The notes beneath the pieces were generated by a model. That model searched no databases. It was not told the DNA's origin and saw only the letters and a program-made list of their open reading frames with translations. From Gemmatimonadota bacterium (GTDB taxonomy: Bacteria; Gemmatimonadota; Gemmatimonadetes; Palauibacterales; KS3-K002), in the NCBI GenBank assembly GCA_039586795.1, contig JBDHJS010000011.1, forward strand, positions 32,001-96,000: a stretch of 64,000 nt of DNA, in the 5' to 3' direction. The translations under genes were made by a program, and so were the position numbers. Below, in pieces: positions 26,759-49,602 of the stretch (position 1 is the first letter of the stretch; each line of letters begins with the position of its first letter).

Positions 26759-27669
26759 GGCCGCTCACCCCTCACAGTTACATCCAGTTCGTATACTTCC
26801 AATTGCCTCACGACTTCTACTATAAGTTCCCGAGCCGGCGGTTCGAGAGCGGGGAGCTTGTGCTCCCGATCGAGCCGTCCGTACTTCTCGACGCCAATCC
26901 TGTGATACGGGAGAATGTCCACGGGATACTTCGACGGCAACTCAGAAAGAAAAGTTCCCATAGCGCTCACGTTTTCCGCATCGTCGTTGATACCGGGATG
27001 AAGCGGAAAACGCACGATCGCGTGCCCATCGTTCTCGGCCAACCAGCGCAGGTTCTCATGAATCGAACGGTTCGATTGACCCGTGAACTCGGTATGCCGG
27101 TGATCGTCCATCACCTTCAGGTCAAACAGGAAGATATCGACTCGCTTCGCCACGCGCCTGAAGATGTTCGGCGCGATGTTTCCGGATGTGTCCACCGCCG
27201 TCCGAATCCCACGCGCTTTGCACCCGTCGAGCAAGCCGATGAGGAATTCCGGTTGATGCAGCGGTTCGCCCCCGGAGAACGTGACGCCGCCTCCCGACTC
27301 GTCGTAGTAAATCGTGTCCTTCTCGATCTCTTCCAGCACGTCTTCAACGCTGACTTCACGACCGACAATCTCGATCGCTCCGCTGAGACAGACGTCGGCA
27401 CAGGCGCCGCACAGATCGCAACGAGCGCGATCGATTCGCACGGCTGTTCCGTTCTTGGAAATGGCGATTGGAGCACAGACGTCGATGCAGTCACCGCAAA
27501 GATCGCAGCGACTCTCCCTCAGCATCAACTCCGGCTCGAACTTCTGACTCTCCGGATTGTGACAAAGCCAGCAGCCCAGCGGGCAGCCCTTGAGGAATAC
27601 AGTCGTACGAAGGCCCGGTCCGTCGTGGATGGCGAACTTCTTGATGTCGAAGATGGTACCGCTGTTCAA
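26755..27669 (-). CDS. Glycyl-radical enzyme activating protein with ferredoxin insert
   Basis: HDGPGLRTTVFLKGCPLGCWLCHNPES, two CxxCxxCxxxC motifs, GGVTFSGGEP. Confidence 0.95.
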   Translation of the reverse strand: MNSGTIFDIKKFAIHDGPGLRTTVFLKGCPLGCWLCHNPESQKFEPELMLRESRCDLCGDCIDVCAPIAISKNGTAVRIDRARCDLCGACADVCLSGAIEIVGREVSVEDVLEEIEKDTIYYDESGGGVTFSGGEPLHQPEFLIGLLDGCKARGIRTAVDTSGNIAPNIFRRVAKRVDIFLFDLKVMDDHRHTEFTGQSNRSIHENLRWLAENDGHAIVRFPLHPGINDDAENVSAMGTFLSELPSKYPVDILPYHRIGVEKYGRLDREHKLPALEPPARELIVEVVRQLEVYELDVTVRGERP

Positions 27670-31381: not shown

Positions 31382-32434
31382 GTGTCTGTTTTTGCGCGAG
31401 CAAGAATTCCCGTCCTGGCAGCGGCCGCTGCCTGCACCGCAGTCGCCTGTAGCGACAGCATCGGTCCGGGCGGGACAGCAGCACAGTTCACGCAGGATAT
31501 CACGTTCGAACAATTTGAGGACGCGATAGCGGCGGGAGATCCGGTACGCGTGGAGGCGAAGGTGACTTCGGTTTCCGGCGGTCCCCCGTATGTCTTGCGC
31601 GAACTGGAGATCGAGGAGCTAGAAGACCTGGCGGACCGCGAGGAAGTGAAGAGTCGGGTCACGGAGTTGCAGTCAACCGCTGCGTGCGAAGGCACGCTGG
31701 TTCTGGAGCTCGAGAACGCGGTCGTCGCCTACAATGACGCAACCCGCTTCGAGCGTGACGACGACGGCGACATGACTTGCCAGGAGTTTCTCGACTACAT
31801 CAACGGCGAGCTGGGCGCGGGCCGGCGGCCGGAGATCGAGGCAAAGCGAGAGCCTCGTTTCGACGCTGGGGTCCCCACTCCGCAGGCGCCCGACAATCCC
31901 GTTTTCGACGCGTCGCGCATCGAGGTAGAGGACGAAAGCTCCGATGCCGAGCTGGAGATGAGCATCGACGACGACAATCTCCTCGACTGCAGCACACTGG
32001 CCAGTCCGCCCGCCGGTTGCGTCGCGGTGCTTAAGATACTCGACGTTATGATGGTCATCGATGACATGACCGACCTCGAAGCCGAGATCGACGATGATGC
32101 AAACGAGGCTGAGTTCGAGGGATTCGCGGCGAGTGTCGATATGGACGCGAACGATCCTTCGATCGGAACGGTAACGCTCACCGATGGTCGGGTCATCCGT
32201 ATCACGGAGTTTACTGAGATCGAGAGCGCCGATGTCGGCGACGACGATAACCTCGGCTCGTTAGCAGAAGTGGACGCCGCTTTGCAGGCGGGGCTCATGG
32301 TTGAGGCCGAGGCCGAGGGAGTGCTCGACGAAAGCGATCCCAACATCCTCATTGCCCACGAGGCCGAGTTCGAGATCGAGGATGATGATGACGATGACGA
32401 TGACGACGATGACAACAGCGGCTCGGGCGCCTAG
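31382..32434 (+). CDS. Very acidic lipoprotein with DUF5666-like repeats and a poly-Asp tail
   Basis: GGAGG RBS, lipobox TAVAC, three G..V/IE.E/K...E.E.E units; ends D10-NSGSGA. Confidence 0.75.
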   Translation: MSVFARARIPVLAAAAACTAVACSDSIGPGGTAAQFTQDITFEQFEDAIAAGDPVRVEAKVTSVSGGPPYVLRELEIEELEDLADREEVKSRVTELQSTAACEGTLVLELENAVVAYNDATRFERDDDGDMTCQEFLDYINGELGAGRRPEIEAKREPRFDAGVPTPQAPDNPVFDASRIEVEDESSDAELEMSIDDDNLLDCSTLASPPAGCVAVLKILDVMMVIDDMTDLEAEIDDDANEAEFEGFAASVDMDANDPSIGTVTLTDGRVIRITEFTEIESADVGDDDNLGSLAEVDAALQAGLMVEAEAEGVLDESDPNILIAHEAEFEIEDDDDDDDDDDDNSGSGA

Positions 32435-34170: not shown

Positions 34171-34887
34171 TCACCAGCGTGATACGCTTGAAGATGGAGA
34201 AACCGAAAACTGTGGGACTGTCACATGGCAACTGAGGCATACAGGATTGGTGCTGGGATCCTTCAGCAGGTGGCCATCGGCCGAGCCGTGCAGTTGGTGG
34301 CATTCGGTGCAAGCCAGCGCCGAGTGGTTTTCCGGCGACGGCATCTCGGCTGCGTGGCATACCGTGCAGACGATGAGCTGCTCCACGGGATCCGGTATGA
34401 TATTCGGTCCGGGTGCGTGCGGTTCGTGACAGTCGACGCAACCGATCCCGTCAGCAAGGTTCGGCGCCGCGGTCAGCGGCGTGAACGTACCACCCAGCGA
34501 CTCCGGCGACGTCGTCAGGATACTCGGTGCGGCTCCGCTGTTGTAGTCGCCGAGGGGGTGGTCGTTGTCCAGGCTCGGCCCCAGGTAGCCCCCCACCGGA
34601 TTGGCGGTCGCAATGAACTCGGGCTGCTGATCGCGTAACGCCGTCGTCCAGTGACAGCGCAGACAGCTCTCGGAGCGGGCACCGAGGCCTGGCGTCTGGA
34701 TGACGGAGCTCGCGTTGGGATCGATCTTCAGCAGGTACGGCGCCTGGGTCGAGGGGTGGGCGGTGTGACAGAGCGAGCAGTTCCCGATCTCCGGGTCGAT
34801 CTCCGTGGGAACCTCCACGTGCTGACCGTTGAGCGGTCCTGCCACCGCAAAGAGGAGAGTAGCGGCAAAAGCGCCGGGACGCGTCAT
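34171..34887 (-). CDS. Exported hexaheme cytochrome c
   Basis: Signal peptide; CSLCH, CLRCH, CVDCH, CTVCH, CTECH, CLSCH; LDNDHP motif. Confidence 0.9.
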   Translation of the reverse strand: MTRPGAFAATLLFAVAGPLNGQHVEVPTEIDPEIGNCSLCHTAHPSTQAPYLLKIDPNASSVIQTPGLGARSESCLRCHWTTALRDQQPEFIATANPVGGYLGPSLDNDHPLGDYNSGAAPSILTTSPESLGGTFTPLTAAPNLADGIGCVDCHEPHAPGPNIIPDPVEQLIVCTVCHAAEMPSPENHSALACTECHQLHGSADGHLLKDPSTNPVCLSCHVTVPQFSVSPSSSVSRW

Positions 34888-34889
34888 CG

Positions 34890-36818
34890 TCAGAAGACCC
34901 TCGAGAATCGGAAGTAGAGTCTGTTCTGCCCGCTACTCGAGGAGTTGCTCCACATCAGGTGATCGTAGCGGCCTTCCAGCCTCATCAAACCGATTCTGAA
35001 CTCGGCGCCCAGGCCACCGCCGATGAACCTGCCGTGTATCGGCTTCAACCCGCGGCCCAGCTGCTGCGACCAATCGTAGGCGCTCAGCTGACCCGTGACC
35101 CGGAGACCCGGCATCGCGAACCACTCGAGCGCTGCTCGGCCCTGAAAGATGTCGTATCGCGTTTCGTTGCGGCGGGTGCTCCAATTGGCTCGCAGGCTCC
35201 CGTTGACCCTGGGGCCGAAGCGATAGCCGAAACCGCCAAACACCGAGAATATGTCCGTCGTGATCGGATCGAATCGATTCCGAACCCATTCCGCACCGGC
35301 GTCGAGTTGGCCGAACTGCGTCGGCGTCTGGAACTGGAGCCCCGTAGTCATGATCTGCGTCTCGAAGAAGACGATGACCGGATCGCTCTCCGTGGGCAGA
35401 TTCAGCGTGTTTCGATGATAGGCGCGGAAACTCCTGAACGTCAGGTCCAGCGAATACAGTACCTGGAAGAACTCGGCGCTGGCGCTAGGCAACAGATTGT
35501 AACGGTAGTCAACCAGTACGACGTCGCCCGCCTGAATCCGTCCGCCCGGCAACGCCACGAATTCCAAGTAGGGGCCGCTGGGAACTAGGCGATAGTCCAG
35601 CCCGTCTTCGTAGAGGATTGTCCCATCCTCGTTCGTCGCCCGAACACTGGTCGGATCCGGCTGGAATTGATCGAGCAGGAACCGCCGCGATTCGGTGATT
35701 TCATGTGGCTCACCCAGAGCCGTGCCGACACCGCCGCTCCCGACCTGCTGCGATCGCCAACGATAGCCGGCGGCACCACTCGCTTGGAGCAACGTCCCAA
35801 AGGGCAGCTGCGCATTACCACCAGCGTTGATATCGACCAGATAGTTCCGCATGCTGCCGCGATTGAAGTTTCGCCAGTCCCCGCGTCCGCTCACACCGAA
35901 GCTCAGCGTGCGTGATGCCTGGACCCGCTCACTGATCGCCGCGGTGTAGATGCGGTTGCGATCGAATGGTGTCTTCGAGTCGGCGACGCTCCACTGAAGG
36001 TTCGTGCTCACGTCCAACGTATGTCGGAGTACCGCCGCCTGACTGAACACGATCGACGTCGAGGGGAAGAACTGGTTTCTTCGGTCCCAGTACTGGAAGT
36101 TCGTAATTAGCGCGCTGCCCTTCCCCCAGCGCTGCCGGTTGTTCAACAACGCTCTATACCATTTTATGTCCTGGGGCCGCAGCAGGTCGTCCAACTCGAA
36201 CCGTTCCAGTGTGATGCGAGTCTTACTGCTCTGCGCATAGAGAACGGCGCGTTCCGACTTCTGGCGGCGCCGCATACCGCGGTCGAGACCAGCTGTGGTC
36301 AGAACGTCCGCCTCGGCCATCTGGAACTGTCCCGTGAACGTCATGTACGGCGTGCGAAGATCTCCACCCACCGTGAAGCCGCTGTTCTCTGCTTCGGCTC
36401 GCGTGCCGAAAATCCCACTGAAGTTGTCTCGCGTCCGGTAGGCCTGGACGAACATCGAAGCCGGCGCTCCGCTCAGCACCCGGATACCGCCGGACCCGAA
36501 CAACGCGTTGCGGGAGCCGGACTGGCGAACATCGCCGCTGCGCCAGGCAAGTTGGGATAGCGCGGGCCGGAAGTTGACATCGAACGAAAGCAGACGAGGG
36601 CTATAGATCGATCCGCGGACTCGGAGCAACAGTGATTCCCGCAACGCCTGGTTGGTGAAAGCGGGGACGCCGCGCCCGAACGATCGTTGTCCATCGTAAC
36701 CGAGCAGCAGTTCACCCTCCGGGCGGTCTACGCTGAACAGCCCTTGCCCTAGCGCGGAGTGGGCGAGTATCAGCGACGCGGCGGCCGCGATGCCCAGGGT
36801 GCACGCCCGGCGAATCAT
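34890..36818 (-). CDS. Large outer-membrane beta-barrel associated with multiheme cytochromes
   Basis: ATG at 36818 overlaps the upstream stop; signal peptide; amphipathic strands; ends FSRVF; paralog of 46638-48563. Confidence 0.82.
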   Translation of the reverse strand: MIRRACTLGIAAAASLILAHSALGQGLFSVDRPEGELLLGYDGQRSFGRGVPAFTNQALRESLLLRVRGSIYSPRLLSFDVNFRPALSQLAWRSGDVRQSGSRNALFGSGGIRVLSGAPASMFVQAYRTRDNFSGIFGTRAEAENSGFTVGGDLRTPYMTFTGQFQMAEADVLTTAGLDRGMRRRQKSERAVLYAQSSKTRITLERFELDDLLRPQDIKWYRALLNNRQRWGKGSALITNFQYWDRRNQFFPSTSIVFSQAAVLRHTLDVSTNLQWSVADSKTPFDRNRIYTAAISERVQASRTLSFGVSGRGDWRNFNRGSMRNYLVDINAGGNAQLPFGTLLQASGAAGYRWRSQQVGSGGVGTALGEPHEITESRRFLLDQFQPDPTSVRATNEDGTILYEDGLDYRLVPSGPYLEFVALPGGRIQAGDVVLVDYRYNLLPSASAEFFQVLYSLDLTFRSFRAYHRNTLNLPTESDPVIVFFETQIMTTGLQFQTPTQFGQLDAGAEWVRNRFDPITTDIFSVFGGFGYRFGPRVNGSLRANWSTRRNETRYDIFQGRAALEWFAMPGLRVTGQLSAYDWSQQLGRGLKPIHGRFIGGGLGAEFRIGLMRLEGRYDHLMWSNSSSSGQNRLYFRFSRVF

Positions 36819-37675
36819 CCCGATTCGGGCTCCTCCGATTCGAGTTCCGCGTGGCAGCGATTGCACTCCATCACCCCGAACGCCGTTGTGCCGTCGTGGC
36901 AGGCGCCGCACTGACGCCCGGTCTGAATCTCGTCCATCGTCACCTCGACGGCCCCAGCTTCCATCGCGAACGGCTCGGGATGGCAAGCGGAGCACTTGTA
37001 GCGAATCCGGTGCGACCAGTGCGGGAAGATCGACGGAGGTAGTGATGCCATGTTGCGGGCGTTGTCGCTTGTCGTATCACGCTGGAATACCAGGTCGGTC
37101 TCGAGCGCTGCCGTCATTCGACCTTCCGGCATCTTCATCTTCGAGTGGCAACGTTCGCAGGTCGGCACGCTAAACGCGACCGATCCGTGACAGACGCCGC
37201 AACTCTCGCCGCGATTGATCGCCGCCATGGATGTGCTATCGCCTCGGCTGCGGTAGATCGACGGATGACAGCTCTTGCAGTCCATCCACTCGACGTGCGC
37301 TGAATGGGGGAAGTACGTCTCCATGGCGCCGAAATAGTAGTCGAACCCAAAGCTCTCGCCGCCGGATTCCTCGGTTCCCGGAGGACCGGGGAGCGGGTCG
37401 ATGATCCCCTCCCGCACCGCGGCGACCCAATCGATGCCGCCTGCCGCATCCAACGGGAGCATGGCCAGCACCGTGTCAGGGTCCAGCGTCTCCTCGATCG
37501 GCAACGGCTGCCTCACCGTATCGACGAACTGGATGCCGGCCATCGCCTGAGAGGCCGACGGGTCCTCCGGCGCCGGCTCCGGGATGTCGAAGACAGTGGA
37601 GGCGACACTACAGCACCAGAAGACCAGCAGCCCGAGAGAAAGCCCGGGCGCCAACAGGCGACTCGACCGCTTCAC
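36815..37675 (-). CDS. Hexaheme cytochrome with two c7-type triheme domains, probable lipoprotein
   Basis: F.H..H....CxxCH...CGxCH...C.RCH occurs twice (6 CXXCH); IDWV motif; Cys follows a hydrophobic leader. Confidence 0.9.
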   Translation of the reverse strand: MKRSSRLLAPGLSLGLLVFWCCSVASTVFDIPEPAPEDPSASQAMAGIQFVDTVRQPLPIEETLDPDTVLAMLPLDAAGGIDWVAAVREGIIDPLPGPPGTEESGGESFGFDYYFGAMETYFPHSAHVEWMDCKSCHPSIYRSRGDSTSMAAINRGESCGVCHGSVAFSVPTCERCHSKMKMPEGRMTAALETDLVFQRDTTSDNARNMASLPPSIFPHWSHRIRYKCSACHPEPFAMEAGAVEVTMDEIQTGRQCGACHDGTTAFGVMECNRCHAELESEEPESG

Positions 37676-38781
37676 GAGCCGCTAACCTCGCCGTTCGACT
37701 TGGGCTCCACGCGCGCGTAGATCGAGACCTTGTCTGGACCGTACTGGTTGGTGACGATCACCAGGTAGTGCGCCTCCAAGCCCGGGTCTACCAGGTCCTG
37801 GAAGAGATGCAGGTTGTCGTAGTCGATCGTCACCTTGGCCGGCAGATACATCGTTCCGGGGCCCTGATAGGGACCGCCGAAGAACATCAGTAGGTCGCCC
37901 TCGTCGTTGAACATCTGGACATTCTGGAAGCCCGCGTCGACCACGTAGAGGATCCCTTCACGATCCACAGCGATCCCTTTCGGCCGAACGAACATCCCCC
38001 AGCCATTCCCGTATTTGCCAACCGACCGAACGAATTCGCCATCGAGTGTGTACACCTTGATTTTGAAGTCACCGAAGTCGCTAACGTACAGCTCGTCGTC
38101 GGTGATCCAGATGTTGGTGGGCTGGAAGACCGAGTTCGGACTGCCTTCCTCAACGTTGGGTAGGCTGGCGATCGGTTGCCGCGTCGCTTTGTCGAACGCC
38201 ACCACCCGGTGTCCGCGCAAATCGGCTACCCAGACACGATCCTCGGTGACGAACACGTCAACCGGAGTCACCATTTCCCCGTGTCCGAAAGCGCCCAGGA
38301 AAGCGCCCGTCGTATCGTACACCAGCACCTCACTGCGACCCACATCGGCAACGTAGAGCGTACCTTCGACAGGATCGGCAAAGCAGTTGATCGGCTTGGC
38401 GAACGCGCCCTGGCCACTGGGTGCCCAGACCTCGAACCTACCCTCGACGAAGTCGAGCACTTCAACGCCCGGTCGCATCGAGTCGCAGGTGTAGAGGCGG
38501 CCGTTCATCAACGTGGCGCCGTACGGCTTGACGATCGGTTCCCAGGCCTTCGTCTGGTTCTCGCCGGTCAGCGTTTGCAGGAAACCCGATCCGCTGCCCT
38601 TCTCGAAATCCTCCGAGCTACCGTAGCGGGCCAGAAACTGGATCCGCGCCGTATCCGGCGGCTCTGGAAAGACCATCGCTCGCTCCGGCTCCACATCTCC
38701 CGACGCACCCTTGGGCCCGCAACCCGTCACGGCTGCCAGCACCACGATCAGCATCGCCTGGATCCAGTGTCTCGTCTTCAT
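37672..38781 (-). CDS. NHL-repeat beta-propeller lipoprotein
   Basis: Lipobox VTGC, P.PPDT.RIQFL, FVRPKGIAVD, DAGFQNVQ, YLPA; GGAGG RBS. Confidence 0.9.
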   Translation of the reverse strand: MKTRHWIQAMLIVVLAAVTGCGPKGASGDVEPERAMVFPEPPDTARIQFLARYGSSEDFEKGSGSGFLQTLTGENQTKAWEPIVKPYGATLMNGRLYTCDSMRPGVEVLDFVEGRFEVWAPSGQGAFAKPINCFADPVEGTLYVADVGRSEVLVYDTTGAFLGAFGHGEMVTPVDVFVTEDRVWVADLRGHRVVAFDKATRQPIASLPNVEEGSPNSVFQPTNIWITDDELYVSDFGDFKIKVYTLDGEFVRSVGKYGNGWGMFVRPKGIAVDREGILYVVDAGFQNVQMFNDEGDLLMFFGGPYQGPGTMYLPAKVTIDYDNLHLFQDLVDPGLEAHYLVIVTNQYGPDKVSIYARVEPKSNGEVSGS

Positions 38782-38877: not shown

Positions 38878-39579
38878 CTACCCCTTCGCGTGACACGTCG
38901 TGCAGATCTGATCCTGCGACTTCGGGATGTTGAGCGAATGGGGGTTGTTGAACTTGTTATGAACGTCGTGGCAGCTCGAGCACTGCAGCTGCCCACGGTC
39001 CAGCAACACTTCCTCCAGCGACCCAGAAACCACGTGGCCGTTGAAGGCGGTCAGATTCAGCGCCGTCGCCGAGGGCGCAACCAAGAACCCGTCGGCCGTC
39101 GCGAGAGCGTCGTCATACACGAACGAAATCGGATGGGCATGGCTCAAGTCACCATTCTGCGGATGCGGAACCGTGTAGGTCGGGTCCGCCGGCGCATACA
39201 TCGCGCCCCATCCGTACTGATCGACGCCAACCGTACCGTCATGGCAGCTCAGGCACAGAATCGCCGTGCCCGTCGGCTGACCCACGGTGGCCGCGCCGTC
39301 AAACGTCTCACTCTGAACGGCGTCGTACATCACATACGACGTGGTCGTCGACAGCTTGTGGAACCACAGCGGCTGGCCGACGCCCGGGGTGTGAGCGTTG
39401 TGGCACACCGTGCACATATCCTCGCCGCCCACGTTCCAGGTGCCCTCACCCGTGTCGTACGAGCTAGGATTGTAGTGTGTGACCCCGTCACTGAAGTCGT
39501 GCCCTGAGCCGGAGAACTGCGCCTGCGCCGGTGCGGCGACGAACAGCACAGCCAGCCCAATTAACCAGAGCTTCTTCAT
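38878..39579 (-). CDS. omcE: OmcE-like exported tetraheme cytochrome c (copy 1)
   Basis: Signal AQAQ, HDFS, CTVCHNAH, PLW, CLSCHDG, DLSHAHPISF, CSSCHDVH, terminal CTTCHAK; AAGGAG RBS. Confidence 0.75.
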   Translation of the reverse strand: MKKLWLIGLAVLFVAAPAQAQFSGSGHDFSDGVTHYNPSSYDTGEGTWNVGGEDMCTVCHNAHTPGVGQPLWFHKLSTTTSYVMYDAVQSETFDGAATVGQPTGTAILCLSCHDGTVGVDQYGWGAMYAPADPTYTVPHPQNGDLSHAHPISFVYDDALATADGFLVAPSATALNLTAFNGHVVSGSLEEVLLDRGQLQCSSCHDVHNKFNNPHSLNIPKSQDQICTTCHAKG

Positions 39580-39964: not shown

Positions 39965-39979
39965 GCAGATGTCGTACCA
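39965..39979 (-). promoter_or_regulatory. Candidate sigma54 (-24/-12) promoter for the left operon
   Basis: Minus strand TGGTACG-ACAT-CTGC(T); GG-N10-GC spacing. Confidence 0.55.
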
Positions 39980-40299: not shown

Positions 40300-42219
40300 C
40301 TAGAACCTTCCTCCATCGCCGTGGCGGTGGCAGTTGTAGCAGTTTTCCTTGCCCGTCATCGAGCTGCGATCGTGACAGGTGTTGCACCACCACCCACCAC
40401 TAGTCAGGTCGGCCTTGTCCAGGTTGTTGGTGATTCCGTATTCCCACTCGGCGGCGCCTTTGCGATCCCAAAACGCCAGCGCGGTGTCATCCGGCGCCAT
40501 ACCCAGCGTCTGATCGAGAACTCGGAACAAGGTCGTCGTGCCTATGCCGGCGCTCTGGTCGATGATCACGTGATTCGAATGGCACGACCAACACGGCATC
40601 ACATCGCCTATGCCCCAGCCTATTCCGGCCCGCAGGTCCACACTCGAGCCGGTCCGAACTCCCATACCGTCGTTGACCCACGTCGTGCGGATGTTCGTGA
40701 TCGCCGTTGTCTGGTCCTGAACTGAGGACGGGAAGCTCCCATCATGACAGTCGAGACAGAATTCGCTGAGGATGTCTCCCGCCGACTGGTATGCCGTAAA
40801 ATACCAGTCCGTGCCGGGAATGTGGCCGTCGCTTGGATCGGGATCGATCAGGTACTTCTGCGCAGCGGTCAGCGTATGCGGATTATGGCAGTTCGTGCAT
40901 TCAATCTTCGCCCCGCTACGGGCCTGTGCTGGCTGCTGGATGTCGTGTCGATCATTCAGGTTCGCGTTTGACCCCAGGCCGGTAGCCGTTTGGACCCAGT
41001 TGATCGCCCGCGCGAACCCGGTCGCCAGGTCGGTGGTTGCCGGGCCATCGGAGTCATGACAGTCGAGACAGAAACCCTCTTCTTCTTCGGTCCGCGTCGT
41101 GGGGTCGGGCGCGACGTCCCCAGGGGCGAGTATTCTGGCCTTTTGCGACCCGTGGCTCGCATGACACCCGAAACTGCCATCGCCAAAGCAGCCAACGATG
41201 GCCGCCGACTGTTTGTGGGAGGCGGTAGTCCACGCCGAGGCGTCGATTAGCGGGCGAGTCAATCCATCCGAGAACGGGGCGAGCGTTCCGTTCGCGCCAT
41301 CTAGATCATGGCAAGAAACGCAGAACGCCTCCAGCTTCGCCGCCTCCGCCGACTGAGTTTGCGGGTCGCCCGTCAATATGTATACGGTCGTCGAATCATC
41401 CGCGTTCTTGAGGCGCACGTTACCCGCCTGGTGGGCGCTGAACTCGTGACAGACCAGGCAATCGCCATCCACGTACGACGCCCCGACATGGTTGCTGGCC
41501 CAGGACATCTCCGGAACGATCGGGCGGCGACTGTTCGGCCCGCTGGTGCCCTGCCCGCCCGTGTCGTGGCAGCTCCCGCACGGTCCGCCCCCGGCGAATC
41601 CGCTCTCGTGAGTGTGACAATCGGTGCAGGTCCGCCCGACTTCGTGCGTATGGTCACTGACGTCCGGAAGGTTCAGCCCGTTCTGATGGTTACTCGTCTC
41701 CGTATGGCACGCCTCGCACACACCATCGTAATCACCGTCTCCATCCTCGTCGCCGTCGGCGAACGAATGAAGCGATGGCTGCCCCGCATCGGTCCCGCGA
41801 CTCGTAAACGACACGGGCAGATCACCACTCACCGGCGTCGTCATCATCTCGCGGATCATCGATAGGTTCGCGGCCGTCTCTCCTTCATGGTCGTGACAGT
41901 CCCAACAGCCCGTTGCCGCTCGGCCGAACTCGGTGTGTCGGGCTCCGTTGTGTACCTCGAACGGACCCTTCGGAACATCTACCCAGACTCCATCCCGGTC
42001 GACCTGCGCCGGACCGGCATCGCTGTGGCACGACCAACAGAGATCTTCAACGACGTCGAATTCTCGCAGCGCGCTGAACGAGCCGCCGTGCAGGTCATGG
42101 CAAAAGCTGCAGTTGTGACTGATCTGCGCGTGTGCCGTCGCCGATTCCTGAAGCGCCGGAATGACGGGCGCGATGAGGCTCCACCCCACGAGTCCCAAGA
42201 GCCAGGCGATCGGCCTCAT
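40300..42219 (-). CDS. Exported large multiheme cytochrome c (14 CXXCH plus one CX7CH)
   Basis: 14 canonical motifs counted by hand; CFGDGSFGCH; signal peptide ending AHA; DGDEDGDGDYD loop. Confidence 0.92.
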   Translation of the reverse strand: MRPIAWLLGLVGWSLIAPVIPALQESATAHAQISHNCSFCHDLHGGSFSALREFDVVEDLCWSCHSDAGPAQVDRDGVWVDVPKGPFEVHNGARHTEFGRAATGCWDCHDHEGETAANLSMIREMMTTPVSGDLPVSFTSRGTDAGQPSLHSFADGDEDGDGDYDGVCEACHTETSNHQNGLNLPDVSDHTHEVGRTCTDCHTHESGFAGGGPCGSCHDTGGQGTSGPNSRRPIVPEMSWASNHVGASYVDGDCLVCHEFSAHQAGNVRLKNADDSTTVYILTGDPQTQSAEAAKLEAFCVSCHDLDGANGTLAPFSDGLTRPLIDASAWTTASHKQSAAIVGCFGDGSFGCHASHGSQKARILAPGDVAPDPTTRTEEEEGFCLDCHDSDGPATTDLATGFARAINWVQTATGLGSNANLNDRHDIQQPAQARSGAKIECTNCHNPHTLTAAQKYLIDPDPSDGHIPGTDWYFTAYQSAGDILSEFCLDCHDGSFPSSVQDQTTAITNIRTTWVNDGMGVRTGSSVDLRAGIGWGIGDVMPCWSCHSNHVIIDQSAGIGTTTLFRVLDQTLGMAPDDTALAFWDRKGAAEWEYGITNNLDKADLTSGGWWCNTCHDRSSMTGKENCYNCHRHGDGGRF

Positions 42220-43163
42220 TTCGCAGCGACCCCCGGATAGACCTTCACCGATGCGCTGCGATTGCTCACCACTAAGACGTCGCCATTCTTCGTGATCAGT
42301 ACGTCGGTGGGCACTCTCAGCTCGGGGCGGCCGCCGATCTCGCCCGTCAACTCCTTCGTTGCCCGGTCAAAGACCAACACCGTGCCCAACAAGGCATCCG
42401 CGACATAGATCCTGCCCCGGTCGTCCACCGCCAGACCCTGCGGTCGAGAGAACCCTCCCGGACAACTCATGCCGCAGCTCACCTCACCAGGGATCTGATC
42501 GACATGGCGACCATCATAGTCGAAGATCTTGATCGAGGCGGCGCCGCCATCCACTCCCCAGTCGCTCACCAGCAACTCGTTCCGAGCGCCGTTCACGGCG
42601 ATCCCCATCGGCGTGGCCAGCTGCTCAGGGCCGCTTCCCGGACTCGAGATCACGCGCTGCAAACCGCCCAGCTCGTCAAACACCCTCACTTCTCGAGCGC
42701 GCCCATCGAGTACGAATACCAGCCCCTGGCCGTCGTCTGCCGCCAGGTCGATCGGATACTCGACCGCTCCGGCGCCGAACGTGCCCGTTGCGCTTCCAGT
42801 TGTCGTCGAGAAGATCTCTACCGTTCGACGGGTACCGTTGCCCACGAAGATGCGATCGCCCAGAGCGACGACGCCCAACGCCTGGCCCGAGACGGCTATG
42901 CCGCGGGCTGGGGTCTGCGAGGTGGGATCGATCTCCACCACCAGGTCCAGGCGACTGTCCGTCACCAGGACTTGTCCACCTGAAGTCAGCGCGAGCCGCA
43001 ACGGCGATCTAAGAGTTATCGCGCCGAGCAAGCCGAAGGTGACTTCCTCCCCGCCTTCTTCACCCCCGGTGGGCGTTCGTTCCTCTCTCCAACAGCCGTG
43101 CGTGAATAACAGCATGCTGGCGAGCAGGCTGAACAGCACTCCACGGAAGGAAAAGACTCTCAT
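42216..43163 (-). CDS. NHL-repeat lipoprotein
   Basis: Lipobox THGC, FSRPQGLAVDDRGRIYVAD, P.GIAV repeats. Confidence 0.88.
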   Translation of the reverse strand: MRVFSFRGVLFSLLASMLLFTHGCWREERTPTGGEEGGEEVTFGLLGAITLRSPLRLALTSGGQVLVTDSRLDLVVEIDPTSQTPARGIAVSGQALGVVALGDRIFVGNGTRRTVEIFSTTTGSATGTFGAGAVEYPIDLAADDGQGLVFVLDGRAREVRVFDELGGLQRVISSPGSGPEQLATPMGIAVNGARNELLVSDWGVDGGAASIKIFDYDGRHVDQIPGEVSCGMSCPGGFSRPQGLAVDDRGRIYVADALLGTVLVFDRATKELTGEIGGRPELRVPTDVLITKNGDVLVVSNRSASVKVYPGVAAK

Positions 43164-43208: not shown

Positions 43209-43223
43209 GCAAGTAGCCTGCCA
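43209..43223 (-). promoter_or_regulatory. Candidate sigma54 promoter for the NHL + 14-heme unit
   Basis: Minus strand TGGCAGG-CTAC-TTGC, about 45 nt upstream of the ATG at 43163. Confidence 0.65.
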
Positions 43224-43606: not shown

Positions 43607-43621
43607 CGGAACGACTTTTGC
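43607..43621 (+). promoter_or_regulatory. Candidate sigma54 promoter for the right operon
   Basis: CGGAACG-ACTT-TTGC(A); GG-N10-GC spacing. Confidence 0.5.
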
Positions 43622-43892
43622 ACTCTGTCGCAGCACTCCCCTCCGCCTATGGCGACATGTCTGAAGCCGTGAATCCCTGGAAACAACTGAGAGTCTAGCA
43701 GGACAAGCCCTAATTGTAGGGCAAGCGCTGTTTACAGGTCCCCCGCTCCGCCCCGCCAGGTCTGTCTCCCGCCGATTCCCCTGGCCCTGTTACAGCAGTT
43801 TGGACATTAGCCCGTGAGTACCGACCACTGAGACTCGACGCGGGACGCCGCGGGGCTCACGGATGATCAAACCCCGAGTTGAGGAGGGACCA

Positions 43893-44537
43893 ATGAAACG
43901 GTTGTTCAGCCTGATCACCGCCTTCATCCTGGCGGCGGCGACGACGGCGAGCGCTCAGCAGATTTCGGGTAGCGCGCACGACTTCAGCGCGGCTGCTTGG
44001 AACAGTACGGGAGAGATCTGCATCGTCTGTCACGCGCCGCATAACAATCAGAGCCCTGCCGGTGAACTAATTTGGAACCGCACTGCCAGTGCCGCGTCCT
44101 ACACGATGTACTCGAACACTAGCGGGACATTCCAGGCGTCTGCCACGATCGCGGCGACGCCAAACGCGGAGTCCAAGGTCTGCCTGAGTTGCCACGACGG
44201 CACTGTCGCACTCGAGTCATTTGGCGGCAACGGTGCCGTAACGACGACGGTGATGGGCGACGTCAACGCAGCAGCGGACGTCGGGTCGGACCTGTCGGAC
44301 GACCATCCGATCTCGTTCGACTACACGAACGCGCTTGCGACAAGCGACGGCGATCTGGCTACTCCGGGCGACAACGGTACCGCTCCCGATGGCAACATGC
44401 CGTTGTTCGGCGCGACCTATCGGATGGAGTGCGCCACGTGCCACGACGTGCACAACGATGTACCGGTTGGCAATGCCAGCCTGCTTTATGTGGACAACGC
44501 GGCCAGCGCGCTCTGTCTTACTTGTCACACCAAGTAG
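43893..44537 (+). CDS. omcE: OmcE-like exported tetraheme cytochrome c (copy 2)
   Basis: Signal ASAQ, HDFS, EICIVCHAPHN, IWNR, YTMYS, SKVCLSCHDG, GSDLSDDHPISF, MPLF, MECATCHDVH, SALCLTCHTK; GAGGAGG RBS. Confidence 0.82.
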   Translation: MKRLFSLITAFILAAATTASAQQISGSAHDFSAAAWNSTGEICIVCHAPHNNQSPAGELIWNRTASAASYTMYSNTSGTFQASATIAATPNAESKVCLSCHDGTVALESFGGNGAVTTTVMGDVNAAADVGSDLSDDHPISFDYTNALATSDGDLATPGDNGTAPDGNMPLFGATYRMECATCHDVHNDVPVGNASLLYVDNAASALCLTCHTK

Positions 44538-44600
44538 CACACGCATAGGGCGGAGCGTCATCGAGAGTTCGAGTCGCCAGTTACCGCCATACGAGAGGCC

Positions 44601-44622
44601 AGGGGGCGCTCCGGCGCCCCTT
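44601..44622 (+). terminator. Hairpin after OmcE-like gene 2
   Basis: AGGGGGCGC-TCCG-GCGCCCCTT. Confidence 0.55.
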
Positions 44623-44654
44623 CGCCTTAACGCTCTAGACCAACAACTCGATCG

Positions 44655-45773
44655 ATGAACAGCCACCGACTGATCCCAGTAGTGCTACTCGCCGCTGCCG
44701 CTGGAACACTGCTGACGGCGTGCTCCTCGACTGCTCCAACACCGGAGCTAACCCAGCCGCGAGAGCTGATCGTCTACCCCACCCCACCGGACACACCACG
44801 TATCCAATTCTTGACACGTTATTCGACTTCAGCTGACATCGAGCCGGAGCGACGCAGGTCGATTTGGGAGTCGATTGCGGGTGAAGACGATTCGGCGAAC
44901 GAAGAGAAGCAGATCGTCAAGCCTTACGGCGTGGCCATGGCGCAGGGCAGAATCTACGTCTGTGACACGGGCGCCATCGCGGTTGATATCATAGACATCC
45001 CGGCGCAGTCGTTGTCTCGTTTCCAGCCCCGCAGTTTTGGCAAGCTCAGTAAGCCGCTTGGCTGCTTCGCAGACGAGTCCGACGGCTCACTATTCGTCGC
45101 CGATGCTGATCGCCAGCAAGTTGTCGTTTATGGGAACGACGGATCCTATCGAGCCAGCTTCGGAGAGCGAGAGAGCATCCGACCGAGTGCCGTATTCGTC
45201 GTCGGTGACAGTATCTTCGCGGCCGATCTGAACGGACAGCGCGTCGCGGTCTACGCGCGCAGCGACCAGCGACTGCTGGGCTTCATTCCAGCCGACACGA
45301 CCGACCCGGCGGCAAGGCTATTCGCTCCCACCAACCTGTTCGTCACTAACGATCACGTGTACGTGACGGACTTCGGGTCCTTCCAGGTGAAGATCTATGA
45401 CCGCAACGGTCGGTTCGTTCGGACACTTGGGCGCTATGGGTCCGGGCTTGGACAGTTCGTTCGCCCCAAGGGCGTGGCCGTCGATCGCAACAGCAACGTC
45501 TACGTCGTCGATGCGGGCTTCGAGAACGTCCAGGTGTTCGATGCAGAGGGCAAGCTGCTGATGTTCTTTGGCGGCCCATACGAGGGCCCGGGCGACCTGT
45601 ACCTGCCGGCCGGGATCACCATCGACTATGAGAACGTCGACCTGTTCCGACACCTCGTTCATCCCGGTTTCCAACTCAAGTATCTCGTCCTCGTAACCAG
45701 CCAATACGGTCCCGACAAAGTCAACGTCTACGGCTTCATCGGCCCCGAGGAGACCCCGTCCCATGCGCCTTGA
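44655..45773 (+). CDS. NHL-repeat beta-propeller lipoprotein (paralog of 37672-38781)
   Basis: Lipobox LTAC, PTPPDTPRIQFL, FVRPKGVAVD, QYGPDKV. Confidence 0.9.
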   Translation: MNSHRLIPVVLLAAAAGTLLTACSSTAPTPELTQPRELIVYPTPPDTPRIQFLTRYSTSADIEPERRRSIWESIAGEDDSANEEKQIVKPYGVAMAQGRIYVCDTGAIAVDIIDIPAQSLSRFQPRSFGKLSKPLGCFADESDGSLFVADADRQQVVVYGNDGSYRASFGERESIRPSAVFVVGDSIFAADLNGQRVAVYARSDQRLLGFIPADTTDPAARLFAPTNLFVTNDHVYVTDFGSFQVKIYDRNGRFVRTLGRYGSGLGQFVRPKGVAVDRNSNVYVVDAGFENVQVFDAEGKLLMFFGGPYEGPGDLYLPAGITIDYENVDLFRHLVHPGFQLKYLVLVTSQYGPDKVNVYGFIGPEETPSHAP

Positions 45774-46641
45774 TACAGGCAAAACGCTCCTCGCCATCTG
45801 TCTTACCGTTGGCGCCCTTTCATGCCGCTCGGCCGCCGAATTGTTCCTCGACATCTCCGAGCCGCCGGGGAACGAGCAATATGCGCCGGCTGCTAACGTC
45901 AGTCAGTCGCAGAGCGTTATGTTAGCGGTTCCAACCGACACCGCCCGACCCCCGATCGAGAGTGTGGACGGCATGGACTCTGTGCTGGTCATGCTGCCAC
46001 AGGCGCCCGACGGAAGCATCGACTGGGTTACGGCGATTCGCGATACGGTAATCCGACCTCGGAACGCACCGCGAGGAGTTGGATCTGTTCGGGAGTCACT
46101 CAGTTTCGATTTCTACTTCGGTGAATTCGAGACCTACTTCCCCCATTCCGCCCACGCGGAGTGGATGGAATGCACCAGTTGTCACCCAACCATCTATCGC
46201 CGCCGCGGTGCCTCAACATCGATGAAGGAGATCGGGGAAGGCCAGTCCTGCGGTCGCTGCCACGGAAGTGTTGCATTCTCCACTGCCGCCTGCGAACGCT
46301 GCCACACGGCAATGAAGTTGCCGGAAGGTCGCCAAAAGCCGAATCTCGGTGCCGTCTACACGTTCTCGCGCTCGGAGACCGCAACCAATATCGCGACCGA
46401 CTCCGTCTTCCCGCCCGCGGTGTTCTCGCATGGCTTCCACCGTATACGCTATACCTGCGCGGCTTGTCACAACGATCTGTTTCCCATGGCGCGCAGCGCG
46501 CCCGGAACGGTGACGATGAAGTCGATTCAAAATGGTGAGGCATGCGGGACGTGTCATAACGGTTCGACCGCGTTCGGCGTTCTGCAGTGCGGGCTCTGCC
46601 ATCAGAAGGTCGAAAGCGACTCCGAGGGCAGTGGACCGTGA
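45763..46641 (+). CDS. Hexaheme double c7-type cytochrome lipoprotein
   Basis: Lipobox ALSC; CTSCH, CGRCH, CERCH, CAACH, CGTCH, CGLCH; IDWV motif. Confidence 0.9.
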   Translation: MRLDTGKTLLAICLTVGALSCRSAAELFLDISEPPGNEQYAPAANVSQSQSVMLAVPTDTARPPIESVDGMDSVLVMLPQAPDGSIDWVTAIRDTVIRPRNAPRGVGSVRESLSFDFYFGEFETYFPHSAHAEWMECTSCHPTIYRRRGASTSMKEIGEGQSCGRCHGSVAFSTAACERCHTAMKLPEGRQKPNLGAVYTFSRSETATNIATDSVFPPAVFSHGFHRIRYTCAACHNDLFPMARSAPGTVTMKSIQNGEACGTCHNGSTAFGVLQCGLCHQKVESDSEGSGP

Positions 46642-48563
46642 ATCGTCTGCAGTTCTTGACGGTTTGTGGACTTGCGGCGCTACTCACCGCCGGAGCGCGA
46701 GCGTCACCGGCACAGCACGTCATCAAGCTATCGCGGACCGGCGGTATCGTTGGATTGGAGTTTGATGGCTACAGTCTTCAGAACTCCTCTGGCTTCCACG
46801 ATGGCCAACGGACCTTTCGCGAATACGTCAATCTTCAAATAACAGGGTCAGTACTCGACCCCCGGGTCCTGCTCTTCGACGTCGGCCTTAGACCTCGAAT
46901 AGAACAGACCTCGTGGAACGCCACCTACGAGTCATCGAGTGGCGGCTCCACGAACCTCGACGCCCGACTGGCCGCCCACCTGTTCAGCCGCGGCAAGATC
47001 TCGCTTCAGGCAGAGGCGATGCGCCTCTCGAACAACGCGCAAGTGCGCTTTGATGAAGAACAGAGCGTTTCCTATCAAGAGCTGCGACTGCGCCTCAACA
47101 CCAGGTTCAGGCCCCTTCCCCTGTGGATCGAGCTTCGAAACCTGCAAAACAACCTCGATTTCTCTCGACCCCAGGGCGTCAGTCTCATGCGTGACGAGCA
47201 GAGTCGCTCTGTTTGGATGCGTGCTCAGAACAGCAAGACCTTTCTTGAATACCAGCACGTTGATTTCTCGGACAACCTGTACGACCGGAGAGTCGTCACC
47301 GACAGGGCTACCGCCACGCACCATATGGGTTGGGGCAAAGGTAGCAGTCTACGCTCGATTCTCACTTATTCTGATCGAGCGGGCGTTGGTCCGTTTCGCC
47401 GATTCGCTTGGAACGAATACGTCAACATCCGGCACACGCTTGACGTTCAGACTGATCTACGCTTCCGACTCTTCGACCAGGTTAGCCGCGGCCTGAAATC
47501 GAAAGGCTGGTTCGTCGATCTTCGACCGCAAACCAGACTGGCCAGAGAAGCCCACGTCGCGTTGAGTGGCCTGGCGGAACGGCGACAGTATGCGCTCGTA
47601 GACTTTCGACGTTATGAACTGAAACCGATGGCCGACGCCGCTTTCGATTTGCCTGCCGGCATGAGACTCATCGCCTCCGGCGCGGTGGGTTATCGCTGGC
47701 AAGTCCAGTCGGCCGACGAAGCATCCGTCGGAGACGTGCTGGATGAACGGCACGAGGTCGACCAGTTCGGTCGGTTCATCCTCGATGAGATTTCGGTGAT
47801 CTCGAGTTCCGTGCTCATCACCAGCGAAGACCGTTCCGTCGTTTTCGAGGAGGGGATCGACTACCAGATCTTTGAGCAGGGTCCGCGCACCGAAGTACTG
47901 TCCCTACCCGGAGGTCGTATACAGCCGCAGGACATTGTTCTGGTAAGCTATAGTTTCCGCCTCATCGATGATCTGAGCTCGGACGCTCTACTCGCCAACT
48001 ACAACGTCAATCTCCAGCTTGGCCCACTCGCCTTCTTCAACCATATGAACCTGGTGGATCCAGCTCAGCAGAGTTCACCCAGGGCTCCAGGTTCGCCAGG
48101 CTATTACCAGAATTTGCAGGCGGGAGTTGCCTATCAAAGTCGTACTCCTTTCGGATCGGTAGACGTCAGGGCCGAGTACGATGCGACAACCACCGATGCG
48201 ATCACGTATCAGATGTTCCGCGTACGGGCAACGTTGTCGGCACGACTGCTTAGAGGGATGGGCAGCACCGTCGGCGTGGCATGGCAGAACGGCCTTGCTG
48301 ACCGCGGGCGTCCAATCTCGCGCCTCGATGCAAATGCAGCGGTCAACTGGAGTCCTATCCCCCGCCTCGCACTCGTTGGCGCCCTGACGGCCTACAGGGG
48401 ACACGCCGATTTTCAACGAGATACGTTCCTCGGCTTCGGTCTCGGTGCCGAGTGGAGCCTGCGGCGACTTCGCATGTTCGCCAGGTACGACTATCGGTCA
48501 TGGGACACCCGGACTCAGCAACAGGAAAGCCGTATCCGAACCGGCATAGCACGATTCTTCTGA
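46638..48563 (+). CDS. Large outer-membrane beta-barrel (paralog of 34890-36818)
   Basis: GTG overlaps the upstream TGA; signal peptide; GS..PR.L.FDV..RP and WGKGS shared with the paralog; ends ARFF. Confidence 0.82.
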   Translation: MNRLQFLTVCGLAALLTAGARASPAQHVIKLSRTGGIVGLEFDGYSLQNSSGFHDGQRTFREYVNLQITGSVLDPRVLLFDVGLRPRIEQTSWNATYESSSGGSTNLDARLAAHLFSRGKISLQAEAMRLSNNAQVRFDEEQSVSYQELRLRLNTRFRPLPLWIELRNLQNNLDFSRPQGVSLMRDEQSRSVWMRAQNSKTFLEYQHVDFSDNLYDRRVVTDRATATHHMGWGKGSSLRSILTYSDRAGVGPFRRFAWNEYVNIRHTLDVQTDLRFRLFDQVSRGLKSKGWFVDLRPQTRLAREAHVALSGLAERRQYALVDFRRYELKPMADAAFDLPAGMRLIASGAVGYRWQVQSADEASVGDVLDERHEVDQFGRFILDEISVISSSVLITSEDRSVVFEEGIDYQIFEQGPRTEVLSLPGGRIQPQDIVLVSYSFRLIDDLSSDALLANYNVNLQLGPLAFFNHMNLVDPAQQSSPRAPGSPGYYQNLQAGVAYQSRTPFGSVDVRAEYDATTTDAITYQMFRVRATLSARLLRGMGSTVGVAWQNGLADRGRPISRLDANAAVNWSPIPRLALVGALTAYRGHADFQRDTFLGFGLGAEWSLRRLRMFARYDYRSWDTRTQQQESRIRTGIARFF

Positions 48564-49390
48564 TGGCTCGATCGACTCGACCGCTGAATCTGCTGCTGAC
48601 CCTGGCCCTGCTATCTGCTGTCCAGGTGCCTGCGTTCGCCCAGCACGACGACATCTCCGTCACCACTCCAGAGAGGTCATCAAGTGGCTGCGTGTTGTGT
48701 CACGCGTCGCACGATGCCGGGCCAACCGTCAAGAGCCTACGCATTGATCCCTTGGTCGCATCCGAATACTCAGCCGCCGGCCTCTCTCCCGCATCTCTCA
48801 GTTGCCTGCGATGTCATTCCACGTGGAGCGCCCGGCTGCGACAACCGGAGTACGTCAACTTGGGAGTGGCTCCATCCCCAGGCGGAAAGCTCTTCGGGAC
48901 CTATCTGCAGGACGATCATCCGGTAGGCGAAGCTTCGCGCCCCGGGCTACCCATGAGGGGAGACGACGCGGATCCATGGTCTAGTTCCGTCGGGATTGGA
49001 AGCGTCGTTCCGAGCCCCGGGACCCACGTACCCGAGTGCAACACCTGCCACGACCCCCATTCTCGCAACGGGCTTCTCATCGCACCCGAGGAGGAGCATT
49101 TCTTCTGCGGCGCGTGCCACGACAGGACTCAGGCCTCATCGACCACGCATACAAACGTCCCCTGCACTGGCTGTCACGCCCTCCACAACGCATCCTCGAC
49201 CAAACTTCTGGCGGAACATGATGTCGACCGGCTCTGCCTCTCCTGTCACACTGCCGCTGGCGTTCCCTCCCTGTCACGCAACTACTCCGAACGCCGAGCC
49301 GAGCTACTAAGCATGCTGGCAGTTCCACGAACGAACATGCATGGCGAGTCGCGTTCCGATCGCTGCACGGGCTGCCACCTGCCTCACTGA
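48563..49390 (+). CDS. Exported heptaheme cytochrome c
   Basis: ATG at 48563; CVLCH, CLRCH, CNTCH, CGACH, CTGCH, CLSCH, CTGCH; LQDDHPVG motif. Confidence 0.9.
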   Translation: MARSTRPLNLLLTLALLSAVQVPAFAQHDDISVTTPERSSSGCVLCHASHDAGPTVKSLRIDPLVASEYSAAGLSPASLSCLRCHSTWSARLRQPEYVNLGVAPSPGGKLFGTYLQDDHPVGEASRPGLPMRGDDADPWSSSVGIGSVVPSPGTHVPECNTCHDPHSRNGLLIAPEEEHFFCGACHDRTQASSTTHTNVPCTGCHALHNASSTKLLAEHDVDRLCLSCHTAAGVPSLSRNYSERRAELLSMLAVPRTNMHGESRSDRCTGCHLPH

Positions 49391-49526: not shown

Positions 49527-49602
49527 GCCCCGGTCGTTAAAGGGTCCTTTTGGAAGACGTTTCATTGGTCCCTCCTCAACGGCGGCCGGGGCCTATTCTT
49601 TT
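49527..49602 (+). ncRNA. Candidate antisense sRNA / 3'-UTR hairpin complementary to the RBS-start of OmcE-like gene 2
   Basis: 49558-49580 is the exact reverse complement of 43878-43900. It sits in a long imperfect stem (GCCCCGGTCG / CGGCCGGGGC) followed by TATTCTTTT. Confidence 0.5.

Follow-up and report, generated by a model that had tools for sequence, protein, structure and literature searches.

A 64,000-nucleotide stretch of one contig from a Gemmatimonadota genome (hereinafter the window, to which all coordinates without a locus or genome handle refer) holds a 12-gene cluster comprising the operon headed by omcE1, a second, divergent copy of that operon, and two further genes. Its features are given below, together with a respiratory gene elsewhere in the window:

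43607..43621, + strand: candidate sigma-54 (−24/−12) promoter of the omcE1 operon, two mismatches to the consensus, 286 nt upstream
43893..44537, + strand: omcE1, OmcE-family tetrahaem cytochrome, 214 aa, Sec signal 1-21, eight His; putative filament subunit
44595..44628, + strand: GC-rich stem-loop 3′ of omcE1 (z −2.7 for 44560-44650)
44655..45773, + strand: NHL β-propeller lipoprotein, lipobox Cys23
45763..46641, + strand: hexahaem cytochrome with two c7 domains (TIGR04257, 117.8 bits against a cut-off of 40; PF14522), probable periplasmic relay
46638..48563, + strand: probable outer-membrane β-barrel, ~640 aa, C-terminal Phe (GTG at 46587 a possible upstream start)
48563..49390, + strand: heptahaem cytochrome whose N-terminal OmcE module precedes an MtrA-like tail of paired CXXCH; His conserved at 15 places; candidate anchor or cap
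42216..43163, − strand: second NHL β-propeller, common to both operon copies (sigma-54-type site at 43209-43223, − strand)
40300..42219, − strand: 14-haem cytochrome, 639 aa, adjoining the operon in relatives too
39965-39979, − strand: sigma-54-type site of omcE2 (pattern match)
38878..39579, − strand: omcE2, OmcE paralogue, 233 aa, 36% identical to omcE1 (9YUQ, E 1.3e-18; 7TFS, E 2e-13)
37672..38781, − strand: NHL lipoprotein paralogue, 44% identical to the + strand copy
36815..37675, − strand: double-c7 hexahaem paralogue, 49% identical
34890..36818, − strand: barrel paralogue with C-terminal Phe, 27% identical; 19 amphipathic segments, within the shuffle range (maximum 21)
34171..34887, − strand: hexahaem paralogue of the heptahaem protein, without a seventh haem motif or the two His that go with it
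535-2484, − strand: clade II (Sec-dependent) nosZ (TIGR04246, above cut-off)

Two operon copies and their candidate promoters

The first gene of the plus-strand run (omcE1, NHL, double-c7, barrel, heptahaem; all five intact, with stops and starts overlapping or close) opens at the ATG at 43893 behind a GAGGAGG ribosome-binding site and closes with the TAG at 44537; starting instead from the in-frame ATG 43863 would lengthen the protein to 224 aa, but the position of the ribosome site favours 43893. The stem-loop behind omcE1 might act as an mRNA stabiliser or partial terminator, which would leave the subunit in excess over the downstream products. Opposite this operon runs a complete paralogous set, 27-49% identical gene by gene, and the fact that both copies are still open at such divergence implies long selection. 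The seventh haem motif missing from the terminal hexahaem gene of the second copy was not found downstream of it in any frame.

A sigma-54-type site lies in all three promoter regions of the cluster, and rpoN is present in the genome. Among 24 upstream regions, which we chose ourselves and scanned at a two-mismatch cut, nine carry such a site against 0.7 expected: the three of the window, 2 of 12 from other Gemmatimonadota, none of five from other phyla or distant loci, and all four from Desulfuromonadales-type loci. Taken across the entire window, the pattern shows no enrichment (50 against 55 expected), the signal being confined to upstream regions. No sigma-70 promoter was found and Rfam gave no match; going by these sites, expression of the omcE1 operon is probably under sigma-54 control. 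Two RNA-labelled runs contained 6% of the words, as only short, low-depth contigs scattered across genes and spacers, a pattern that speaks neither for expression nor for a habitat.

A perfect 23-bp inverted repeat joins the ribosome site and start codon of omcE1 (43878-43900) to a second arm at 49558-49580, 168 nt past the last gene of the operon and within a hairpin followed by a U-rich run (+ strand, z −2.0). The repeat has just these two exact copies genome-wide, where exact inverted pairs of at least 20 nt spaced 0.2-20 kb apart number 12; it may be the trace of an inversion, an invertible switch, or a 3′-end antisense to the omcE1 start. The idea of a conserved antisense or invertible element at omcE starts was rejected: the inverted copy was found in no other locus, and a second match in genome G011 proved to come from overlapping contigs. 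The omcE genes of the family share the start motif itself.

Among the larger flanking ORFs scanned are genes for a sodium:solute symporter (SSF), a GH2 β-galactosidase and an S9 peptidase. Elsewhere the window encodes a PFL-like glycyl-radical enzyme (24392-27669, − strand) with an apparent activating enzyme. At 31382-32434 (+ strand) lies the gene for a probable lipoprotein of 350 aa that is very acidic, matches DUF5666 weakly and has a poly-Asp tail.

Homology of omcE1 to the OmcE filament subunits

OmcE is a four-haem protein that Geobacter stacks into conductive extracellular filaments and that serves metal reducers. A PDB sequence search with omcE1 recovered 9YUQ (residues 1-214, E 4.2e-30) and 7TFS (residues 8-214, E 5.9e-26), both OmcE filaments, and as the third-best match reached only E 0.39, the similarity is not due to chance; no OmcS match appeared at E≤1. 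The two structures are OmcE of Geobacter sulfurreducens (7TFS) and DSOUD_2954 of Desulfuromonas soudanensis (9YUQ) (Petersen et al., 2026; PMC13712944). An AlphaFold2 model of omcE1, built without haems from a 119-sequence alignment and of mediocre confidence (pLDDT 67.6), matched 7TFS in Foldseek (E 9.9e-8, TM 0.54, 32% identity; the one significant match of the four listed) and in a VIA comparison (Z 11.2, rmsd 3.3 over 164 residues, 35% identity); in a VIA scan of 48,161 chains, 7TFS alone reached Z≥2. omcE1 is a genuine OmcE relative over its full length, in sequence and in fold, and the family assignment of the original prediction, made from the sequence alone, therefore holds. Identity to the solved subunit in these two structural comparisons is only 32-35%; in the alignment to OmcE that the prediction had proposed, every His ligand is conserved. 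OmcS (6EF8/6NEF) is a hexahaem protein of ~400 aa, unlike the tetrahaem, 214-aa omcE1.

Each motif named in that prediction is present in omcE1 and in the same order: HDFS (29-32), ICIVCHAPHN (42-51), WNR (61-63), YTMYS (70-74), SKVCLSCHDG (94-103), GSDLSDDHPISF (131-142), PLF (170-172), ECATCHDVH (179-187) and SALCLTCHTK (205-214), the last forming the chain terminus. The mature protein has exactly eight His, four within CXXCH and four outside (H29, H50, H138 and H187), the latter being the extra His of that prediction; each of the eight aligns with a His of 7TFS and of 9YUQ, and all are conserved without exception in 119 of 119 aligned sequences. omcE1 also shares with the solved subunits the WNR and DHP motifs and the flush C-terminus. 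All 120 top homologues likewise have the four motifs, a His three residues after the first (+3), and a C-terminus two to three residues past the fourth. A ninth His stands at position 63 in 113 of the 119 aligned sequences, where omcE1, 7TFS and 9YUQ have the Arg of WNR, so His counts on their own are suggestive rather than diagnostic.

The expected signal, of cleavable Sec type, is read by eye as MKR, a hydrophobic core and an ASA-Q junction, and a lipobox scan found no Cys, in agreement with the proposed lack of a lipid anchor. The protein is small and acidic (net charge −16), and its Pfam match is to the generic Paired_CXXCH family. An Ala/Thr/Ser/Asn-rich composition, from which room for glycosylation had been read, is indeed seen (42% of the mature chain); the glycosylation itself finds no support, the chain having six N-x-S/T sequons and neither D/E-x-N-x-S/T nor D-S/T-hydrophobic motifs, and the larger flanking ORFs scanned beside the cluster including no glycosylation or trailing glycosyltransferase gene. 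According to PMC13712944, D. soudanensis OmcE, which comes from a minimal cluster, shows no glycan density, and minimal marine omcE clusters also have no glycosyltransferase genes.

Relatives of omcE1 are very common: we recovered 2364 proteins among 2916 candidates, and named genomes from many phyla yielded 52 loci. Homologues were found in 8 of 30 further genomes from the same family, in 2 of 30 from the sister family and, at E≤1e-20, in at least 21 of 400 others from the phylum, a minimum since only seven candidates per genome were scored; the system in this phylum is real but patchy. Likely OmcE homologues have been given for five phyla (Petersen et al., 2026; PMC13712944); the string 'Gemmatimonad' is absent from the main text of that paper, whose supplement of more than 500 modelled proteins may include entries. 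Within the full-text portions returned by a literature search for OmcE and Gemmatimonad, we found no work examining nanowires. omcE1 is a member of a described and common family in a little-studied, uncultured Gemmatimonadota host, a phylum other than those of the two solved OmcE proteins and outside those five. RecA places the host accordingly: all named sequences among its best 120 RecA matches are labelled Gemmatimonadota, and one at 93% bears a shortened label, 'Candidatus Kutch...', which we take to mean Kutchimonas of the order Palauibacterales (PMC10469786). Two Gemmatimonadota subunits have five CXXCH motifs, one of them inserted (L085:3269-3970 and L104:9731-10432), and probably belong to the branched five-haem OmcE-like family of Petersen et al. 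(PMC13712944).

Cluster relatives and a proposed filament model

A minimal omcE cluster is described as OmcE with two multihaem cytochromes, two propeller lipoproteins and a large barrel, and an OmcE is rated a 'likely nanowire' when a large β-barrel and a β-propeller lipoprotein are encoded nearby (Petersen et al., PMC13712944). By that rule the gene context of omcE1 qualifies, its barrel being a probable one: the cluster has a lipobox NHL protein at 44655, NHL proteins at 37672 and 42216, and further multihaem genes for 6, 7 and 14 haems. The ~640-aa protein is probably a barrel judging from its composition, with 22 amphipathic segments against a shuffle mean of 12.9 and maximum of 20, and it fits the large-barrel description in size, C-terminal Phe and amphipathic excess. 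It has no Pfam, NCBIfam or relevant PDB match and no MtrB/PioB family match; an atlas lead gives Porin_4 in 33% of a 0.89 cluster.

The compared loci are those that we take, from gene layout and flanking genes, to be of Desulfuromonas type and uet type. Like the former, the omcE1 cluster combines OmcE with two kinds of β-propeller, multihaems and, probably, a large barrel; unlike them, it has double-c7, heptahaem and 14-haem proteins in place of the 8-haem and 9-23-haem proteins, lies outside the purH-resB-ffh context, comes in two divergent copies, and has no glycosylation genes seen beside it. Its barrel shows no detectable kinship to six Desulfuromonas-type barrels (best E 0.0054; hhalign 2.8%) and is marginally alike to eight uet-type barrels (best E 7.5e-5). 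In the MtrA/MtrB conduit (6R2Q) the barrel is of similar size and MtrA is matched by the heptahaem tail, but the DmsE family scored nowhere near its cut-off in the omcE1 cluster. The gene order omcE, NHL, c7, barrel, heptahaem recurs, with variants, in most Gemmatimonadota loci examined.

The uet cluster of Ca. Tenderia and Gallionellaceae, tied to electron uptake, encodes a tetrahaem UetA, a barrel UetC, the c7 proteins UetD/E/G, the NHL proteins UetH/I and an undecahaem UetJ (bioRxiv 10.1101/2022.05.06.490989). The omcE1 cluster resembles it in the tetrahaem, the probable barrel, the c7 domains and a pair of NHL proteins, and also in having a longer cytochrome with an OmcE-like start; it differs in fusing c7 domains in one hexahaem and in having a heptahaem where uet has the undecahaem, and none of its 12 genes codes for an undecahaem UetJ, a PPIase UetB or a cupredoxin UetF. 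The uet-like loci (L018, L019, L021, L022, L027-L029, L031-L035 and L038; Gallionella, Magnetovibrio and others), identified by layout rather than by alignment to Tenderia proteins, encode UetJ-type 11-haem proteins that open with an OmcE module; E values of their matches to omcE1 range from about 1e-18 to 1e-26. Where these loci reach far enough, an OmcE-family tetrahaem gene lies upstream of that for the 11-haem protein, and the two features together link the uet and omcE clusters.

As to how omcE1 would work, Sec export would be followed by haem loading through a Ccm system, for which the genome has CcmC- and CcmF-type WWD motifs. In STC and OmcS, a His three residues after motif i ligates haem i−2, and a His before motif i ligates haem i+1. 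By this pattern H29 of omcE1 would serve haem 2, H138 haem 4 and H187 haem 1, and because the chain stops two residues past haem 4, haem 3 would have no second ligand from its own chain. H50, three residues after the first CXXCH, would then be spare and would complete haem 3 of the next subunit, making the protein a self-complementary unit that stacks head to tail into a continuous bis-His haem chain. Both OmcS and OmcE have an interface haem for which the adjoining subunit supplies one His (PMC9473688; PMC12954529); in OmcS it is the penultimate haem that the neighbour ligates (PMC6584659), as proposed here for omcE1, and OmcE has one unsatisfied interface haem (PMC13712944). We infer that omcE1 is likely to polymerise into an extracellular cytochrome filament of OmcE type, with omcE1 as the repeating unit. 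The propellers and the barrel would be its chaperones and the means of exporting or mounting it, the double-c7 and heptahaem proteins would link it to periplasmic and inner-membrane carriers, and it would serve to pass respiratory electrons, outward or inward, between the cell and solids or other cells. Points against this reading are the low identity to the solved subunit, the mediocre model, a barrel that is probable from composition and has no detectable kinship to the Desulfuromonas-type barrels, and the ninth His of most aligned sequences.

The kinship with uet opens another reading, which we regard as rather unlikely: that omcE1 is a member or short oligomer of a Uet-like porin-cytochrome conduit, docking through the same donor and acceptor His interface on the heptahaem or 14-haem protein at the outer membrane without any micrometre-long filament. 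It draws on the uet layout (tetrahaem, barrel, c7 trihaems, NHL, 11-haem) of loci recovered with omcE1 as query in Gallionella, Magnetovibrio and similar bacteria, on the c7 domains common to uet and this cluster, with no c7-domain gene detected in the Desulfuromonas-type loci, and on the MtrA-like tail of the heptahaem protein; the uet system itself has been modelled as a porin-cytochrome conduit with a polymer only as a possibility (bioRxiv 10.1101/2022.05.06.490989). However, omcE1 would offer a donor His at one end and an open acceptor at the other, with nothing in its sequence to stop chain growth, and both structurally studied OmcE proteins make long filaments (PMC13712944). A soluble, monomeric periplasmic tetrahaem carrier in an STC-like role that merely retains the OmcE fold would suit the Sec signal without lipid anchor, the small acidic chain and the generic Paired_CXXCH match, but it is very improbable given the conserved coupling to barrel and propeller genes, the invariant +3 His and flush C-terminus, and nearest structures that are filaments. 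That omcE1 is unexpressed, one of the two divergent copies being silent or decaying, is hardly credible: the patchiness of the cluster in the family (8 of 30 other genomes), the seventh haem lost from the terminal cytochrome of the second copy, and the orphan inverted copy of the omcE1 start behind the operon are set against five intact genes in the omcE1 copy, fully conserved ligands, a sigma-54 site, and paralogues both still open at 27-49% identity.

The genome offers partners for the proposed filament. It has 39 ORFs with at least three CXXCH, of which an 11-haem/cytochrome-b protein, presumably of CbcL-like architecture, and a 21-haem NapC/NirT-domain protein are candidates for the quinol side. 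With the clade II nosZ, an aa3-type oxidase and dsrA in the genome, extracellular electron transfer could, if the filament is made, be linked to the respiration of N2O, sulfur or oxygen. A search for narG found none in the genome, which is 97.8% complete. The dsr genes (dsrJ, dsrA and a dsrB-like gene, G000:C73:66070-70893) encode a dissimilatory sulfite reductase, reductive or oxidative. Large multihaem clusters (13-21 haems) lie at G000:C13, C53, C80 and C97, mostly with no family above cut-off, and in other bacteria we noted 41-haem proteins with regular paired-CXXCH repeats (L048:845-3913 and L049:703-3759; Fibrobacteraceae- and Krumholzibacteriia-labelled contigs).

The heptahaem protein as a candidate anchor

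How OmcE filaments end and connect to the cell has been stated to be an open question, and an ideal anchor has been described as a protein with nine His and four haems, none having been found in the omcE clusters treated there (Petersen et al., PMC13712944). A profile of 12 heptahaem family members, searched against the PDB, matched OmcE over positions 5-191 (9YUQ, E 2e-14; 7TFS, E 1.2e-10), MtrA through the tail (6R2Q, E 1.5e-18, best stretch 156-269) and OmcS weakly (E 3.7e-4); hhalign against an OmcE profile gave 99.1%. The 11 seven-haem members have 15 His in equivalent places, the donor-type His included, and 15 His for seven haems (2n+1) is one above the bis-His need. In a tree of 98 OmcE modules, made by a quick method and not used for transfer or order of events, the hexa- and heptahaem modules stand apart with support 99, and omcE1 is not placed.

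We tentatively propose, as a possibility still on the doubtful side, that the operon encodes both the subunit and, in the heptahaem protein, the filament's terminator or anchor. Its N-terminal module would offer an OmcE-type donor His with its own haems all satisfied and would thereby cap the base of the growing filament, and its MtrA-like tail would sit in the barrel, wiring the filament to the periplasmic double-c7 protein. A census bears on this: among 21 other Gemmatimonadota loci with a barrel match, fetched by genome handle, 18 encode, besides the subunit, another protein that has an OmcE module and an extension containing His (a heptahaem in 14 loci, an 11-haem protein in one, a pentahaem with an extra terminal His in two, a nine-His-type tetrahaem in one), and the remaining three end at a contig edge. 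These loci are kin, selected with a barrel profile from the window's relatives. Counting all loci with a barrel match, 31 of 36 have such a protein (L053-L073, short duplicates, dropped), against none of six Desulfuromonas-type loci, the kind with solved filaments. Also against the anchor role is the window's own second copy, whose hexahaem has no closing motif.

In loci without the heptahaem gene, the same operon encodes a nine-His tetrahaem (L103), a pentahaem with an extra C-terminal His (L100 and L102) or an 11-haem protein that has the OmcE module as well (L099); the L103 protein has the hypothetical anchor pattern of PMC13712944, and UetJ-like proteins would be counterparts of these. The paralogues L103:10416-11168(−), L100:9009-9755(+) and L102:8852-9706(+) have the extra His 9-10 residues past the last CXXCH and share an operon with a normal subunit. 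Other OmcE paralogues have no +3 His (L082:5452-6048, L084:3174-3806, L086:8916-9701, L018:1-843 and L028:3-926); by the same ligand ledger they would be acceptor-only and thus candidate caps for the tip or opposite end. The Desulfuromonas-type 8-haem protein (L088:11596-12672, and in L089, L090, L091, L095 and L096) has an OmcE-like C-terminal module and no N-terminal donor His, and may be an acceptor-type partner. On an anchor encoded within the operon, only Petersen et al. (PMC13712944) was relevant among the literature matches listed.

If omcE1 makes a filament, electron exchange with minerals or partner cells takes place in a widespread phylum with hardly any cultured members, although, the OmcE family being so broad, a record for a new phylum is a modest gain. 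Of greater use is the concrete candidate, encoded in the operon itself, for how OmcE filaments end and join the cell. If the heptahaem protein is indeed the anchor, an usher- or anchor-like assembly route for OmcE-class nanowires would become directly testable, and Gemmatimonadota would be added to the nanowire builders.
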